Shown: one piece after another, positions 5,405 through 55,449 of the stretch
Layout: the number at the start of each line of letters is the position of its first letter
Numbering within the stretch: position 1 is the stretch's first letter
NCBI GenBank assembly: GCA_964404275.1
Contig: CAYOJH010000001.1
Span: 41,512 to 105,511 of the forward strand
Direction of reading: 5' to 3'
Length of the DNA: 64,000 bases
Source: an uncultured Gammaproteobacteria bacterium
GTDB taxonomy: Bacteria > Patescibacteriota > Patescibacteriia > SG8-24 > DYFX01
The notes under the pieces: generated by a model
What the model saw: only the letters and a program-made list of their open reading frames with translations
What the model was told of the DNA's origin: nothing
Database searches by the model: none
Translations under genes and position numbers: made by a program

Positions 5405-5478
5405 TGGCTCGGGGACTTGGATTCGAACCAAGATTCACGGCTTCAAAGGCCGCTGTCCTACCATTGGACGATCCCCGA
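5405..5478 (-). tRNA. tRNA-Gln (anticodon TTG)
   Basis: Reverse complement folds as a cloverleaf: acceptor UCGGGGA/UCCCCGA, anticodon stem GCGGC/GCCGU with loop CUUUGAA (anticodon UUG), T-arm CUUGG-UUCGAAU-CCAAG, CCA encoded. 74 nt. Confidence 0.8.
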
Positions 5479-47521: not shown

Positions 47522-48673
47522 TTCGACGATCCAGTCCTTCTTGAAGTCGAGGAAACGGTCTTCGAGGATCGCTTTGCGCATTTCGCGCATCAGGTTCAGC
47601 AGGAAGTGCAGATTGTGGAGCGTGCCAAGGCGGAAATAGGCGAGCTCCTCCGCCAGGAACAGATGGCGCAGGTACGCGCGCGTGTAGTGCTTGCACGTGA
47701 AGCAGGCGCATTCCTCGTCGATCGGACGCGTGTCGAGCTCGTGCGCTTTGTTGCCGATCTCGATGCGGTATTTTTTGGAACGCCCGGCCTTGCGGTTGAA
47801 AAGCGCGCCGTTGCGCGCGACGCGCGTCGGCGAAACGCAATCGAACATGTCGGCTCCCCCTTCGACCACGTCGAAGAGATCTTCGGGCGAAAGGCCGACG
47901 CCCATCGTGTAGCGCGCTTTGTCCTCCGGCATCAGATCCTCGATCCAGCCGAGGATCTCGCGCGTTTTTTCCATATTGTAGCCGACCGACTCGCCGCCGA
48001 TCGCGAAACCATCGAAGCCGCGCGAGGCGATGAACTCCGCCGAAGCGCGACGCAGATCTTTATGCACGCCGCCCTGCACGATGCCAAAGAGCTGCTGCGT
48101 GAACGTCGGCGCGTCTTTTTTATCCTTGAACGCTTCGAGGCAGCGGTCCGCCCAGCGATGCGTGCGCTCCATCGCCGCGCGCGCCTCTTCCTCGGAAGCG
48201 CTGTCGGACGTGCATTGGTCGAATGCCATGATCACGTCCGCGCCGAGCTTCTGCTGGATCCGAATCGCCTCTTCCGGCGTGAAGCGATGACTCGAACCGT
48301 CGAGATGCGACTTGAAGGTGACGCCGTCCTCGTCGATCTTCACGAGATTGCCGTGCGCGGATTTCTTCGCGCCCAAAGAAAAAACTTGATAACCGCCCGA
48401 ATCCGTCAAAATCGCGCGGTTCCAATTTTGAAAGGCATGGACGCCGCCGAGCGCTTTGATCGCGTCCTCCCCCGGCCGCAAGTGCAAGTGATACGTATTA
48501 TTCAAAATGATCTGCGCGCCCAACATTTCCATGTCGGCCGCGTCGAGCGCCTTGACCGTCGCCTGCGTGCCGACCGGCATGAAGACCGGCGTCTCGACGT
48601 CGCCATGCGCGGTATGCAAAATGCCCGCGCGGGCGCGCGAGTTTTTATCTTGGTGCTGGAGCGTGAAATTCTT
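47519..48673 (-). CDS. tgt: Queuine tRNA-ribosyltransferase (tRNA-guanine transglycosylase) Tgt
   Basis: RARAGILHTAHGDVETPVFMPVGT ..., LTDSGGYQ, and the zinc site CACFTCKHYTRAYLRHL. 384 aa from MKNFTLQ. Confidence 0.9.
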   Translation of the reverse strand, partial: KNFTLQHQDKNSRARAGILHTAHGDVETPVFMPVGTQATVKALDAADMEMLGAQIILNNTYHLHLRPGEDAIKALGGVHAFQNWNRAILTDSGGYQVFSLGAKKSAHGNLVKIDEDGVTFKSHLDGSSHRFTPEEAIRIQQKLGADVIMAFDQCTSDSASEEEARAAMERTHRWADRCLEAFKDKKDAPTFTQQLFGIVQGGVHKDLRRASAEFIASRGFDGFAIGGESVGYNMEKTREILGWIEDLMPEDKARYTMGVGLSPEDLFDVVEGGADMFDCVSPTRVARNGALFNRKAGRSKKYRIEIGNKAHELDTRPIDEECACFTCKHYTRAYLRHLFLAEELAYFRLGTLHNLHFLLNLMREMRKAILEDRFLDFKKDWIVE

Positions 48674-48858
48674 CATGACGTTCGAGAAGTGAAATGCCAC
48701 TGCAAGCATTCGGCGCATTGATAGACATTCAAGTCCACGCCGTTCTTTTCTTCGGCGTAGGCCTTGGCCTCGAGCGCCTGGCGCTCGGTCTCATAGGCTT
48801 TCTTGGCCGAGGAACACTGGTTCCGACTCATGTCCGGCCTGAGCGGCTGAAATCGCAT
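48673..48858 (-). CDS. Small hypothetical protein (61 aa) immediately upstream of tgt
   Basis: ORF overlapping the tgt start by 4 nt (atga); contains QCAEC. Weak call. Confidence 0.25.
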   Translation of the reverse strand: MRFQPLRPDMSRNQCSSAKKAYETERQALEAKAYAEEKNGVDLNVYQCAECLQWHFTSRTS

Positions 48859-48894
48859 AACGACCCATCTTGGACCAAAAAACGTCCGCGGTCA

Positions 48895-48920
48895 AGACAC
48901 GTCATTCGCGAATGACGTGT
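48895..48920. repeat. Perfect 26-bp palindrome gacacgtcattcgcgaatgacgtgtc (13-bp arms)
   Basis: Read directly; lies just 3' of the ORF6N stop (48920-48922) and is followed on the minus strand by ttttttggtcc. Candidate terminator and/or protein-binding site. Confidence 0.7.
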
Positions 48921-49426
48921 CAAGTCTTGAAACCGATCTCCTCCTTTTTTGAAGGCGGCTCCGCCAAAAGCTGCCGAATGGCGTCGAAGACGATCTTGAA
49001 CTGCTTGTCGTAGCGCTGTTCCAAGACCTCAAGTTTTAAACGAAGATCTGCATTCTCCGCCAGGAATTCGCGCAGCTTGGTAAACGTGCGAATGATCTGA
49101 ATGTTGACCAAGATGGCCCTTGGACTGTTCAAAACGCTCGAAAGCATGGCGACGCCCTGCTCAGTGAAGGCGAGTGGCAATTTACGAAGACCGCCCCAAC
49201 TTGAAGTCACAAATTGTGACTTCAAGTTTTTAAGCTCATCTTGATGCAATTTAAACATAAAATCCTCTGGGAAACGCTCCGCATGGCGCTTCACAGCTTG
49301 ATTCAACACTTTCGTGGAAACGCCATACAAATCGGCCAAATCGCGGTCGAACATGACCTTCCGGCCGCGAAATACGTGGATCTTCTCCGCAATGCGTTCT
49401 GCCGGGACGATGCCATATTGTTCCAT
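48920..49426 (-). CDS. ORF6N-domain protein (KilA-N/ORF6N family, phage antirepressor-like)
   Basis: IVPAERIAEKIHVFRGRKVMFDRDLADLYGVSTKVLNQAVKRHAERFPEDFMFKL is the ORF6N domain signature; C-terminal coiled coil. Start at MEQYGIV. Confidence 0.65.
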   Translation of the reverse strand: MEQYGIVPAERIAEKIHVFRGRKVMFDRDLADLYGVSTKVLNQAVKRHAERFPEDFMFKLHQDELKNLKSQFVTSSWGGLRKLPLAFTEQGVAMLSSVLNSPRAILVNIQIIRTFTKLREFLAENADLRLKLEVLEQRYDKQFKIVFDAIRQLLAEPPSKKEEIGFKT

Positions 49427-49529
49427 ATGGCGCGGTCCTAGCAGAACGCGCGTCATTCATGCAAGAGATTCAAAAAACCGGCCACGATCACATCGCGCGG
49501 TCGAAGCTCGTTTTTTCATGTATACTTGC

Positions 49530-50342
49530 ATGACTATGCCTAGCACTTCTTTCGACTTCCCTAGCGCCATTTTTTTCAGCATCGCTTGGCCTTTCTTGAA
49601 AATACTTCTTATCTTGTTGGTATTTGCCATGGTGCTCGGCCTCCTTACCGGGATTTTTACTTACGGACAGCCGATCCGAAAGGAAAAAAAATCAGGCGGC
49701 ATGGATGACGCGATCATGCTAGGCATGATCATCTCGCATGCGTTGATCGACTTCATCCTGGGAAAATTCCGCAGGGGGAAGGGCGGCGACGGCGGGTGGC
49801 TCGATAATCAAAAAATCCTTGCAATGATGCGAGGCATGCATCCGAGCGAGTTTGAGAAATTCATCGCTGAAATGTTCGCGGCGCTCGGATACGAAACGGA
49901 AGTTGTCGGCGGCAAAAGCGATGGAGGCATCGATATCGAAATGACGAAAGGCGGTCGCCGTTACGTGGTGCAGTGTAAAAAATTCATCACCCGCAAGGTC
50001 AGGCCGACGGACGTGCGGGATTTCTTTGGGGCGATGATCGGTCGAAACGCAGATGGCAAGGGCTTCTTTGTCACAACGAATATTTTTACCACCGAGGCAG
50101 AGTTGTTCGCTGAAGGCAAACCGCTTGAACTCATCGACGGCCTTGAGCTGGTGAGCCTCGTCCGGCAAAACGGCATGCTTGGGAAAATACCGGCCGCGTC
50201 ATCAATACCGGCAGTATCGGCTAAACGAGAATCATGCCCTGCATGCGGGGGTGTGTTAACCGAAAGGGCTAATCGCAACGATGGCAGCAAGTTTCTGGGA
50301 TGCTCAAATTTTCCAAGTTGCCGCTATACGAAATCACTTTAG
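49530..50342 (+). CDS. Membrane-anchored Mrr-like restriction endonuclease (Mrr_cat domain) with C-terminal topoisomerase-type C4 zinc ribbon
   Basis: N-terminal TM (IFFSIAWPFLKILLILLVFAMVLGLL), Mrr_cat core EKFIAEMFAALGYETEVVGGKSDGGIDIEMTKGGRRYVVQCKKF (D-x(n)-D/E-x-K nuclease motif), and C-terminal CPACGG...FLGCSNFPSCR (zf-C4_Topoisom). Confidence 0.7.
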   Translation: MTMPSTSFDFPSAIFFSIAWPFLKILLILLVFAMVLGLLTGIFTYGQPIRKEKKSGGMDDAIMLGMIISHALIDFILGKFRRGKGGDGGWLDNQKILAMMRGMHPSEFEKFIAEMFAALGYETEVVGGKSDGGIDIEMTKGGRRYVVQCKKFITRKVRPTDVRDFFGAMIGRNADGKGFFVTTNIFTTEAELFAEGKPLELIDGLELVSLVRQNGMLGKIPAASSIPAVSAKRESCPACGGVLTERANRNDGSKFLGCSNFPSCRYTKSL

Positions 50343-50344
50343 CG

Positions 50345-50370
50345 AAAAAGAGGCGGAACGCCTCTTTTTT
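50345..50370. terminator. Bidirectional rho-independent terminator between the Mrr-like gene (+) and gpmI (-)
   Basis: aaaaa-gaggcg-gaa-cgcctc-tttttt, symmetric with A/T runs on both sides. Confidence 0.6.
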
Positions 50371-50373
50371 GAT

Positions 50374-51951
50374 TCAGACCAGCGGCCTTCCCGTCATTTC
50401 GTTCGGTTGCGGGATGTTCAGGATTCGTAGAATCGTCGGCGTGACGTCAGAGAGCATGCCGACGGGCGGGCTGAGGCTCAGGTCGCCGCCGACCATTTCC
50501 TGGGCTTCGCCGGCCATGCCTTCGAACTGGCGGCCGACGATGATGAGCGGCACGGGGTAGGTGGAGTGCTCCTTGTCGATCGCGCCGGTCTGGAGATTGA
50601 CGACTTCTTCGGCGTTGCCGTGATCGGCGGTGATCAGCACCACGCCGTTTTTCGCCAGGGTCGCGTCGACGATCTTGCCGATGCACTGGTCGATGACTTC
50701 GGCCGCCTTGACGGTGGCTTTCAAATTGCCGGTGTGGCCGACCATGTCACCGTTCGCGAAGTTCGCGAGGACGACGTCGTACGTCCCGTTGTTGACCTCC
50801 TTCACGATGCGGTCGGCGATCTGCGGCGCGGACATTTCCGGCTGCTGGTCGTACGACGAGACTTTCGGCGACGGGATGATCACGCGGTCTTCGCCCGGGA
50901 ACGGGTCTTCCTTCATGCCGTTCAGGAAGAACGTCACGTGCGCGTATTTTTCCGTTTCGGCGATGTGGAGCTGCTTCATGCCCGCTTCGGAGATGACGCG
51001 GGCCAAGCAGTTCGAAATCGGTTCCGGCGGAAAGGCGACTTGGACCGGCAATTCCTTTTCGTATTCCGTCATCGTGACGAACATCAGGTCGCGCATGTAC
51101 GTCCGGGCGAACTTGTCGAAGGCCGGCAGGGCGAAGGCCTTGGTGATCTCGCGGGCGCGGTCCGGACGGAAATTGAAGAAGATGACGGCGTCGCCGTCTT
51201 CGATTTTCGCGACGGGTTTCCCCTTCTCCGTGATGACCGTCGGAATGAATTCCTCGTCGTAGATTTTTTTCTCGTAGGATTCCTTGATCGCCCGGAGCGG
51301 GTTGTCGCTCATGACGTCGGCCTGGCCCTCGGCCATGGCGCGATAGGCTTTCTCGACGCGGTCCCAGCGATTGTCGCGATCCATCGCGTAGAAGCGCCCG
51401 GCCAAGGTGGCGATCTTGCCGACGCCGTTCTGCTTCATGCGCGCTTGGACGGTGGTCACGAAGTCGATGCCGGCGTTAAAGGTGGTGTCGCGGCCGTCGA
51501 GAATCGCGTGCAGGTACGTTTCTTTCACGTTCTGCGCTTTGGCGAGATCGAGCAGCGCCAGAAGATGGTCGAGCGAAGCGTGCACGTTGCCGATCGACGT
51601 CAGGCCGAGCAGGTGCAGCTTCGATTTCTTTTCCTTCACGTGTGTGATCGCCTCGAGGAACACGGCGTTCTGCGCGAACTCGCCGCTCTGGATCGCGCGG
51701 TTGATGCGCGGCAGGCTCTGGTAGTAGACCTTGCCGGCGCCGATCGTCAGGTGGCCGACTTCCGAGTTGCCCATCTCGCCCCACATCAAGCCGGCCTCTT
51801 CGCCGGAAGCGAGGATCGTCATGGCCGGATAGTTCGAAGCGAGCGCGCGGATACGCGGCGTGTCGGCCATGGCGAGCGCGTTGCCCTGGTCCGGAGGCGC
51901 GACGCCCCAGCCATCGAGAATCAGCAGCACGAGGGGTTTCGGGGTTGGCAT
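50374..51951 (-). CDS. gpmI: 2,3-bisphosphoglycerate-independent phosphoglycerate mutase (iPGM, GpmI), copy A
   Basis: PLVLLILDGWGVAP ... SEVGHLTIGAGKV ..., metal-site motifs and C-terminal ADHGNAEE. Start at MPTPKP (51951); an upstream ATG at 51993 is possible. Confidence 0.85.
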   Translation of the reverse strand: MPTPKPLVLLILDGWGVAPPDQGNALAMADTPRIRALASNYPAMTILASGEEAGLMWGEMGNSEVGHLTIGAGKVYYQSLPRINRAIQSGEFAQNAVFLEAITHVKEKKSKLHLLGLTSIGNVHASLDHLLALLDLAKAQNVKETYLHAILDGRDTTFNAGIDFVTTVQARMKQNGVGKIATLAGRFYAMDRDNRWDRVEKAYRAMAEGQADVMSDNPLRAIKESYEKKIYDEEFIPTVITEKGKPVAKIEDGDAVIFFNFRPDRAREITKAFALPAFDKFARTYMRDLMFVTMTEYEKELPVQVAFPPEPISNCLARVISEAGMKQLHIAETEKYAHVTFFLNGMKEDPFPGEDRVIIPSPKVSSYDQQPEMSAPQIADRIVKEVNNGTYDVVLANFANGDMVGHTGNLKATVKAAEVIDQCIGKIVDATLAKNGVVLITADHGNAEEVVNLQTGAIDKEHSTYPVPLIIVGRQFEGMAGEAQEMVGGDLSLSPPVGMLSDVTPTILRILNIPQPNEMTGRPLV

Positions 51952-51993
51952 AGCTTCCAAAGTGTAGCTTCCGAAGGCCTTTTTTTCAAGCAT

Positions 51994-52017
51994 GAAAAAA
52001 ACCGCTGGATCAGCGGT
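51994..52017 (-). terminator. Rho-independent terminator after the 52017-52523 gene
   Basis: Hairpin accgctggatcagcggt overlapping the stop, preceded on the plus strand by aaaaaaa (a T-run on the minus strand). Confidence 0.5.
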
Positions 52018-52523
52018 TATGCGTCCCGATCGTCCCGAATGAAGATCGCGGGCTGCGTCTCGAGTAGCCGCCCGATCGTGAGCGACTTCTTGTCGTAGGC
52101 GCGGAGGTTCTCGGCGTTCAGCTTGACGCCGTGCCGCATGACCAGGCGTTCGTCGGTACCGGCCTGGGCCAGAAAGGCCGGCAGGTTGTGGATCATTTCC
52201 ATCATCGGCATGCGCATTTGCGTGTGCGCTTCCGTCGCCATCTCGAGCATCTCTTCCAGCGGGAACGGCAGCTGTTCGGCCGGCGTGGCCTCGAGCATCT
52301 TCTTAATGAAGCCCTGGTCGAGCATATGCTCGAGAATCGCGAGCTTGGCCTCCATGAGCGACGAAAGCGTGACGGTCTTGCCGAGGTGATCGGCCAGCAG
52401 TCCGGGCAGCGCGGCCGCCAGCTCGCGGATGACCGGAACGGCTTGTTCGGGGATTTCGCTCATGAATGCGGCGTCGTTCTCGAGCGCCTTCCAGATCTTC
52501 TTCGCATCGGGCTTCGTTGCCAT
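52017..52523 (-). CDS. Hypothetical protein (168 aa) between the two gpmI paralogs
   Basis: ORF with own terminator; helical, Met/Glu-rich; no motif. Confidence 0.45.
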   Translation of the reverse strand: MATKPDAKKIWKALENDAAFMSEIPEQAVPVIRELAAALPGLLADHLGKTVTLSSLMEAKLAILEHMLDQGFIKKMLEATPAEQLPFPLEEMLEMATEAHTQMRMPMMEMIHNLPAFLAQAGTDERLVMRHGVKLNAENLRAYDKKSLTIGRLLETQPAIFIRDDRDA

Positions 52524-52582
52524 CGCAATCCTCCTCGCGCCGAGGTATATCGCGAAAACGCCGACCCGTCAAGGTCGGCGTT

Positions 52583-55449
<2,867 letters not shown>

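Follow-up and report, generated by a model that had tools for sequence, protein, structure and literature searches.

Contig CAYOJH010000001.1 (assembly GCA_964404275.1) comes from an unusually high-GC genome of the Patescibacteria (Candidate Phyla Radiation, CPR). A 64-kb stretch of it (64,000 nucleotides; hereafter the window) carries a two-gene islet between the housekeeping genes tgt and gpmI. One gene encodes a protein with an ORF6N domain, the other a membrane-tethered Mrr-type nuclease. The islet is the GC minimum of the window, with 50.6% at position 48901 compared with a mean of 62.2% (sd 2.5; 1.5-kb windows), and the lowest-GC 1.5-kb windows all begin at 48.6-49.0 kb. Tetranucleotide distance peaks at the same place (0.46, mean 0.24, sd 0.04), the top five windows starting at 48.25-49.25 kb. 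Both measures bear out the initial annotation, made from the sequence alone, which had noticed a sharp drop to about 50% GC between tgt and gpmI. The GC content at third codon positions (GC3) is 0.62 for ORF6N and 0.60 for the nuclease, whereas queA, two hypothetical genes, tgt, both gpmI genes and hyp168 range from 0.77 to 0.87. The acquired insert, taken as ORF6N plus nuclease, spans 48896-50373, close to where the initial annotation had placed it, and is organised as follows.

48920..49426, minus strand: ORF6N gene, 168 amino acids (aa) from M11, where the NCBI entry (P0091) starts it, or 178 aa if translation began at the in-frame ATG further upstream (49456)
49427..49517, no strand: divergent intergenic region between ORF6N and nuclease, 91 bp, presumed to hold the promoters of both genes
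49518..50342, plus strand: Mrr-type nuclease gene, 274 aa, with alternative starts at 49530 and 49536

The initial annotation had described the two genes as convergent. They are divergent and lie head-to-head, and the nuclease and gpmI form the sole convergent pair. A consensus promoter scan of the 91-bp divergent region detected nothing useful. Apart from each other, the neighbours of the two genes are tgt, gpmI and small61, a short gene directly before tgt; these are housekeeping genes or have no known function, and Pfam confirms the TGT and iPGM assignments.

A scan of species-representative genomes with the tgt protein recovered six relatives (L004-L009) at 90-93% aa identity in TGT. The gene order gpmI2-gpmI1-[gap]-tgt-hyp172-hyp171-queA is kept in all six, and tblastn returned no match to ORF6N, the nuclease or small61 at the gpmI-tgt junction of any of them. 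Their gaps are 528, 956, 1649, 1927 and 3506 bp long (1697 bp in the window), and their cargo differs: a conserved 108-aa protein (alone or with others), a PIF1-like helicase, a NUDIX hydrolase, a TehB-type methyltransferase and a 215-aa unknown protein, and in one relative a 493-aa Cys-rich protein encoded at 38% GC. The window contains none of these gap genes. Sequence similarity among the relatives reaches precisely as far as the gpmI stop codon on one side and the tgt promoter on the other. The variable region begins at the gpmI stop codon itself, since the terminators that directly follow the gpmI1 stop differ from genome to genome.

Because six syntenic relatives have neither gene and hold other cargo in the same place, the comparison marks the site as a variable hotspot of gene turnover, and ORF6N and the nuclease as lineage-specific and, by all appearances, acquired. 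The two genes are thus not conserved at this position across the lineage, and the proposal of the initial annotation, horizontal acquisition into a housekeeping context, stands. Ancestral genes of odd composition were considered and ruled out, both genes being absent in the six relatives.

Four features lie at or beside the edges of the insert, the last of which precedes tgt.

50345..50369, no strand: bidirectional intrinsic terminator, AAAAAGAGGCG-GAA-CGCCTCTTTTT, common to the convergent Mrr nuclease and gpmI genes
48896..48921, no strand: left palindrome, perfect over 26 bp, with halves GACACGTCATTCG and CGAATGACGTGTC; unique in the window, 0 expected by chance
48859..48895, minus strand: conserved tgt promoter-like element, with TTGACC at 48895-48890, a 17-nt spacer, CAAGAT at 48872-48867, 8 nt and then ATG at 48858
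48673..48858, minus strand: small61, open reading frame (ORF) for a 61-aa Cys-rich protein (C15, C47-x2-C50, H53) matching phrog_15216 (E 2e-8)

On the right, the terminator that the initial annotation had placed at the close of the islet is present. It consists of 11-nt arms (an A-run plus GAGGCG) that are 100% complementary around a 3-nt loop, and a fold is predicted for either strand (-17.9 and -15.4 kcal/mol, z -3.7 and -2.8). The perfect palindrome reported at the left end is likewise real, but it is no boundary repeat of the island: it runs into the stop codon of ORF6N (TGA, 48922-48920) on one side and touches the -35 box of the tgt promoter on the other. As RNA it forms an 11-bp stem (-19.1 kcal/mol, z -2.0), and its place is taken in L005 and L006 by the upstream gene's terminator. 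To judge from this placement, the left palindrome is most likely a 3' hairpin or insulator of ORF6N and not an island end.

The tgt promoter-like element recurs in L004-L009 as TTGAC, 17 nt, a -10 of the CAAGAT/CAGAAT/ATGAT type and about 8 nt, followed directly by the tgt ATG. This arrangement would suit a promoter with a leaderless-type layout. In the window, small61 sits exactly between the element and the tgt ATG, starting at the ATG position that tgt uses in the relatives. It is the leading ORF of a small61-tgt transcript and runs into tgt through an ATGA in which stop and start overlap. Upstream of tgt in L004-L009 it was not found. Its GC3 is intermediate (0.71). Only one other homologue was found in the protein collection; it is 75% identical and likewise lies ahead of tgt, in the more distant L191 (tgt at 81% identity) and with an unrelated gene upstream. 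The GC3 value and the L191 homologue give small61 a separate history, and it looks like an older feature outside the ORF6N/Mrr acquisition.

This history is relevant to the suggestion that the islet is a remnant. A decayed prophage or integrative element once inserted beside tgt would explain the PHROG matches, of ORF6N to anti-repressor families and of small61 to a family of unknown function, and the presence of ORF6N relatives on IMG/VR viral contigs. Against it, the islet contains no integrase, as the initial annotation had already remarked, no recombinase or other phage gene and no pseudogene debris. The nearest tRNA lies at least 24 kb away, no other target is apparent, and a search for flanking direct repeats or att-like sites gave only short, chance-level matches. 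Moreover, few sequenced phages (5 of 50,697 records) or plasmids (25 of 72,556) carry the ORF6N subfamily, the same gap holds unrelated non-phage cargo in the relatives, and small61 does not share the history of the other two genes. We therefore consider a remnant very unlikely; the relatives' cargo fits cassette replacement. Since integrase, att site and repeats are all missing, the simplest route of acquisition would be homologous replacement through the conserved flanks.

The nuclease combines four segments in a single chain.

49563..49658, plus strand: transmembrane (TM) helix, aa 16-47, from the AlphaFold2 (AF2) model and homologue alignment
Downstream of it, plus strand: basic linker and then helix aa 61-80, from the AF2 model and homologue alignment
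49830..50159, plus strand: Mrr_cat PD-(D/E)xK core, about aa 105-214, with D135, D139 and Q152-C-K154
50229..50339, plus strand: topoisomerase-I-type C4 Zn ribbon, aa 238-274, with C240, C243, C262 and C268

The core matches Mrr_cat (PF04471, E 2e-27, 95.8 bits against a cut-off of 21) and the C-terminus Zn_ribbon_Top1 (PF01396, E 1e-11, 45 bits against 32). The AF2 model (predicted local distance difference test, pLDDT, 84) consists of helix 16-47, helix 61-80, the core and a three-stranded ribbon with pLDDT above 90. Among solved structures, it is matched best by the nuclease domains of MspJI (4f0p), AF1548 (1y88) and AspBHI (4oc8). An alignment of 26 homologues has the hydrophobic N-terminal helix, basic linker, second helix, core and C-terminal ribbon in common, and D135, a G-G pair, D139, Q152-C-K154 and the four ribbon cysteines (C240, C243, C262, C268) are invariant. 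The TM-anchored Mrr_cat nuclease with a C-terminal ribbon that the initial annotation had recognised is thereby confirmed; with ORF6N, all three of its domain calls exceed the Pfam gathering scores. The NCBI gene call (P0001) begins at M38 and yields 237 aa, truncating, within 49518-49631, the TM helix that is conserved in the homologues. This shorter call is on record only on two short Logan contigs, and the true start is probably 49518, 49530 or 49536. Applied to the full-length protein, the positive-inside rule predicts an N-out/C-in topology in which the helix would anchor the catalytic part at the cytoplasmic face of the membrane.

The classification of this enzyme as type IV (modification-dependent) in the initial annotation was drawn from the nuclease fold alone. 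It is unproven because no modification-reading domain (Mrr-N winged helix, SRA, EVE/ASCH and similar) is detected by Pfam or in the AF2 model. The PADLOC models mREase_IV, PDC-S02 and ZorD match the nuclease domain only, mREase_IV over positions 163-294 of 317. The other hallmark of the class is in place, as the ORF list and Pfam reveal no methyltransferase in the islet or its flanks. The Mrr_cat plus ribbon architecture is common, given that an exhaustive search recovered 16,119 cluster representatives with E <= 1e-3, of which 3,874 reach E <= 1e-10. The 150 best matches are mostly 200-300 aa long and align through to the ribbon. Their sources annotate them as "restriction endonuclease" or "restriction system protein". 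A literature search on Mrr_cat with a Zn ribbon found no paper naming both domains and no functional study, and the family is uncharacterised as far as we found. The protein is most likely a solitary membrane-tethered nuclease with intact catalytic residues, whose ribbon is its only nucleic-acid-binding module and which would cut incoming foreign DNA.

The ORF6N protein matches PF10543 over model positions 2-86 of 86 (E 6e-34, 116.6 bits against a cut-off of 27.8). It also has a full-length match in PADLOC to PDC-S05 (PDLC04856, E 3e-57, residues 11-173 on model positions 1-172 of 177), which PADLOC classes as a single-gene candidate defence family; the defence-type affinity proposed by the initial annotation is supported by this result and, for the nuclease, by its domain-level PADLOC matches. 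The PHROG anti-repressor families cover the N-terminal domain only (residues 10-122 on positions 11-126 of 268). No phage genes, integrase or repressor lie in or near the islet, so that neither the prophage context nor the cognate repressor of a phage anti-repressor is present. The family is very large: more than 8000 hits were scored and all passed, and the best 120, with 60-76% identity, extend to other phyla. In the AF2 model (pLDDT 70), a small alpha/beta domain is followed by two long C-terminal helices. We claim no structural family, because the matches in the PDB are weak and winged-helix-like at best (SKI/Dachshund, E about 0.1). Going by the model, the protein is presumably a dimeric DNA-binding protein of an ORF6N-plus-coiled-coil form. 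Exact-protein look-ups with the window ORF6N (178 aa, 168 aa and P0091) and with the 274-aa nuclease gave no match, and literature searches on ORF6N and on KilA-N with palindromes found no functional study.

The closest ORF6N relatives in other CPR genomes are single genes packed amid housekeeping genes (L182, L183); in L182 the neighbours are a DUF711 gene and ruvX, at distances of 2 nt and 1 nt. On the Treponema saccharophilum plasmid pTS1 (L189), ORF6N is part of a type I restriction-modification (RM) operon, hsdM-wHTH-ORF6N-hsdS-Fic (wHTH, winged helix-turn-helix), which fits an association of the family with defence islands. In a cold-seep study, one PDC-S05 representative, a protein with a Virulence_RhuM domain, made T7 and T5 plate about 1000-fold less efficiently in E. 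coli (bioRxiv 10.1101/2024.09.26.614923). A defence role of the window ORF6N is plausible.

The initial annotation had combined the two genes into a defence or addiction module. As such, ORF6N would be a DNA-binding regulator or antitoxin of the divergent nuclease, comparable to a C-protein restriction system or an addiction pair, and their head-to-head layout over a common 91-bp region, their equally atypical composition and the predicted DNA-binding domain of ORF6N would all suit this role. We examined co-occurrence in 66 metagenomic loci (354 kb) and 25 viral loci with nuclease homologues and in about 89 ORF6N loci. An ORF6N protein is found in 0 of the 91 loci carrying Mrr-Zn-ribbon homologues, and a Mrr-type nuclease in 0 of the roughly 89 ORF6N loci; the adjacency of the two families is not conserved across genomes. 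A Pfam survey of 82 neighbours of nuclease homologues detected no family more than twice, and no recurrent partner or methyltransferase; these neighbours are a housekeeping mix with a few restriction and defence genes (DpnI, Eco57I, C5 methylase, AbiEii, DUF559). The closest nuclease homologue (62% identity, L003) stands beside different genes, ORF6N homologues occur alone between housekeeping genes, and PADLOC treats PDC-S05 as a single-gene candidate. The core of a palindrome within the ORF6N gene (see below), which could have served as an operator, has no further copy in the 91-bp region or elsewhere in the window. A functional module is thus highly improbable, and the pairing is best explained as a coincidence of two cargo genes in one hotspot.

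We conclude, with a probability of roughly two in three, that a variable inter-operon hotspot holds the islet as lineage-specific cargo, made up of two unrelated single-gene defence-type genes that happen to lie head-to-head. The hotspot would reach from the gpmI stop codon to the conserved tgt promoter. The two genes would be independently mobile: an ORF6N-plus-coiled-coil member of the candidate defence family PDC-S05 whose coding sequence (CDS) contains a 31-bp dyad, and a solitary Mrr/MspJI-fold PD-(D/E)xK nuclease with an N-terminal membrane anchor. The defence roles of both would follow from their family and fold relationships.

Several observations weigh against this conclusion. ORF6N genes are GC-poorer than their host loci in other CPR genomes too (46% compared with 53-55%; L182, L183), and part of the low GC may therefore be intrinsic to a very conserved gene, making it a weak clock for arrival. 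The islet is flanked by housekeeping genes and does not belong to a defence island; only the adjacent nuclease is a defence-type neighbour of ORF6N. The head-to-head layout with a common 91-bp region would also suit a regulator-plus-target pair in this genome. The phage protection by PDC-S05 is not directly transferable, because Pfam finds no RhuM domain in the window ORF6N. Finally, many CPR genomes have members of the nuclease family in housekeeping surroundings, and a non-defence role such as housekeeping DNA processing is possible for it.

The last point can be extended to both genes. They may have been acquired for purposes other than defence, with the nuclease acting in DNA uptake, nucleotide scavenging or repair and ORF6N being an ordinary transcription factor. 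CPR bacteria depend on scavenged nucleotides, nuclease homologues are widespread in Patescibacteria and often surrounded by housekeeping genes, and neither a modification reader nor a partner gene accompanies the window nuclease. Uptake or scavenging outside the cell is at odds with the predicted topology, which would place the nuclease and its Cys4 ribbon in the cytoplasm. The gene is also dispensable in six relatives and its fold is closest to restriction enzymes, and ORF6N is enriched in defence contexts according to PADLOC, with the pTS1 homologue inside its RM operon. We regard a non-defence function of the pair as unlikely.

Cargo of two defence-type genes is thus our preferred explanation, and within it the ORF6N coding sequence contains the strongest sequence signal of the islet.

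49198..49228, no strand: intragenic palindrome, perfect over 31 bp (15+1+15), within the ORF6N CDS and encoding N-L-K-S-Q-F-V-T-S-S

Neither this palindrome nor the small61 gene had been recorded in the initial annotation. As RNA, the palindrome forms a 14-bp stem, and its 101-nt context folds with -30.5 kcal/mol (z -4.5). We compared the position in ORF6N genes of other loci (L077-L190, L237-L316), anchoring the sequences on the protein alignment alone, without structure fitting. In 46 distinct genes the dyad holds 10-15 of 15 Watson-Crick pairs, and these genes belong to Patescibacteria, Thermodesulfobacteriota, Legionella, Sulfuricurvum, Haliovirga, Treponema and many viral contigs. Dyad cells are paired in 83% of cases, compared with 26-40% when the partner column is shifted by 1-3 positions. 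Twelve of the 15 pairs have changed on both sides, and the covariation score is 0.355 against 0.125 ± 0.013 in shuffled data (reached in 0 of 500). ORF6N genes carry a conserved, covarying dyad.

The compensations commonly change amino acids, as in GGTGCCAA-a-TTGGCACC (S to C, V to G), GGTCGAAA-a-TTTCGACC and GGGGTATCACA-aaa-TGTGATACCCC, and another variant with a different core is again a perfect 15/15 dyad. When synonymous codons are redrawn from the usage of each gene, 288 ± 11 pairs result (at most 325 in 2000 trials), whereas 560 are observed; codon choice is strongly biased towards pairing. One clade retains AACTGGTCACAA-a-TTGTGACCAGTT in another reading frame: in L120, L122 and L135, the hairpin nucleotides (AACTGGTCACAAaTTGTGACCAGTT) are read as V-T-N-C-D, not S-Q-I-V-T. 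In two genes (L094, L155), the hairpin-coding unit is duplicated in tandem. Of the cells that do not form Watson-Crick pairs, 11 are G-T, 29 A-C and 27 other, counts that are phylogenetically non-independent. As there is no excess of G-U wobble, a purely sense-RNA role of the dyad is not indicated. Nothing in Rfam overlaps 49198-49228 even at E <= 10, at the gathering score the whole window yields only four tRNAs, and neither Rfam nor a limited literature search yielded a description of the dyad.

We tentatively suggest, at slightly short of even odds, that ORF6N genes carry a selected dyad or hairpin with 12-15 bp arms that acts as a cis element in the middle of a domain-coding region. Candidate roles would be a binding site of the dimeric ORF6N protein itself, for self-regulation or self-recognition, or a processing or mobility site. 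If so, the element could help explain the conservation of ORF6N and its lone occurrence amid housekeeping genes.

A functionless dyad deserves nearly equal attention. Template switching at quasi-palindromes yields complementary changes without selection, and the dyad could be a self-perpetuating quasi-palindrome whose arms are kept alike by such switching during replication, at a place where the protein is tolerant of change. The encoded peptide lies partly in a loop that the model predicts with low confidence (residues 73-79, pLDDT below 50), and the wobble counts give no indication of selection on the sense-strand RNA. Covariation alone cannot separate selection on a cis element from neutral homogenisation of the arms. 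A neutral palindrome should decay somewhere, yet the dyad persists with 10-15 of 15 pairs in essentially every sampled ORF6N gene from several phyla and down to about 40% protein identity, is held in another frame by one clade and is duplicated in two genes. Its 19-mer, described below, outnumbers two composition-matched palindromes on viral contigs by a factor of about 15 or more. We see the neutral origin as a real possibility that falls somewhat below an even chance; selection on the dyad appears favoured because its retention is near-universal.

The 19-mer AGGTCACAA-N-TTGTGACCT was found in 44 viral stretches, with 15 copies in ORF6N genes and 29 free-standing; the two composition-matched control palindromes occur in 2 and 0 viral stretches. 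Outside ORF6N, the palindrome AGGTCACAAnTTGTGACCT is located on low-GC viral contigs (IMG/VR loci L192-L234), flanked by A-runs and T-runs. Among the independent free-standing copies, 20 of 21 are intergenic and terminator-like, and no neighbouring gene is common to them. They look like ordinary terminators, with an unexplained excess over the controls; if the dyad is a cis element, they might be related targets. The palindrome also has a practical consequence. Two Logan contigs with the identical nuclease gene (L001, L002) both begin exactly at 49199, inside it. Short-read assemblies break at the palindrome, and ORF6N genes are therefore probably often fragmented in metagenomes.

The islet as a whole is routine small lineage- or strain-specific cargo of a defence type, made up of two already catalogued families. 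Its value lies in being a clean case of cassette turnover at a core-gene junction in Patescibacteria, whose defence repertoires are poorly known, and in the caution that adjacency and a common odd composition do not make a system. The conserved dyad in ORF6N is the one feature of the islet that deserves follow-up. Should it be a selected cis element, it would offer an experimental handle on the abundant, functionally uncharacterised family PF10543/PDC-S05 and add a further case of a nucleic-acid signal overlapping a conserved protein motif.

Beyond the islet, gpmI is represented by two tandem iPGM paralogues (50374-54157; L004-L007) with about 40-44% mutual identity, and the pair is conserved across the lineage. 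In the window they are separated by a 168-aa ORF (52017-52523) with host-like GC3 (0.85) and no family match. This ORF is missing in all five relatives that cover the spot, where the paralogues are about 14 nt apart. Secondary composition outliers occur at about 27.7-30 kb and at 5.3-5.5 kb (tetranucleotide distance 0.30-0.34, GC 56-57%), the latter coinciding with a tRNA-Gln (5405-5478). Three of the relatives (L005, L008, L009; TGT at 90-92%, same synteny) are labelled "uncultured Gammaproteobacteria bacterium". These labels are probably wrong, because the other three syntenic relatives are labelled Patescibacteria or Minisyncoccota.

Cis sites and selfish palindromes inside coding sequences are known from the phage pac site in terS, the lambda origin in gene O and the Rickettsia palindromic elements. 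Like them, the ORF6N dyad lies within an ORF and is conserved beyond the need of the protein. It is much shorter than the Rickettsia elements, and ORF6N genes differ from the other examples in having no known replication, packaging or mobility function and no Rfam family.

The ORF6N protein resembles the phage anti-repressors of the KilA-N/ORF6N class (PHROG; PF10543) in its N-terminal domain. It differs from them in that the match ends there, in the missing prophage and repressor context and in belonging to a mostly chromosomal subfamily. With PDC-S05, the ORF6N/RhuM-type single genes of PADLOC, it shares a match to the full-length model, a single-gene organisation and relatives in RM and defence contexts. 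The only PDC-S05 member for which we found an experimental test has Virulence_RhuM, whereas the window protein is the short ORF6N-plus-coiled-coil form amid housekeeping genes.

With variable core-gene hotspots that exchange cargo by flanking homology, the site shares conserved flanks, cargo that differs in each relative and the lack of an integrase or att site. It differs in its very small size of two genes, and the exchange mechanism would be the same only by inference. The nuclease has in common with the type IV enzymes Mrr, MspJI and AspBHI the Mrr_cat PD-(D/E)xK core with D...QxK and a solitary gene without a methyltransferase. The readers of those enzymes (the Mrr-N winged helix of Mrr, the SRA-like domains of MspJI and AspBHI) are missing, and a TM anchor and a C-terminal Topo-I Zn ribbon replace the N-terminal reader. 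The small "restriction endonuclease" proteins that join Mrr_cat to a topoisomerase ribbon agree with it in architecture and size; nothing essential differs, and the window nuclease is a member of this group.

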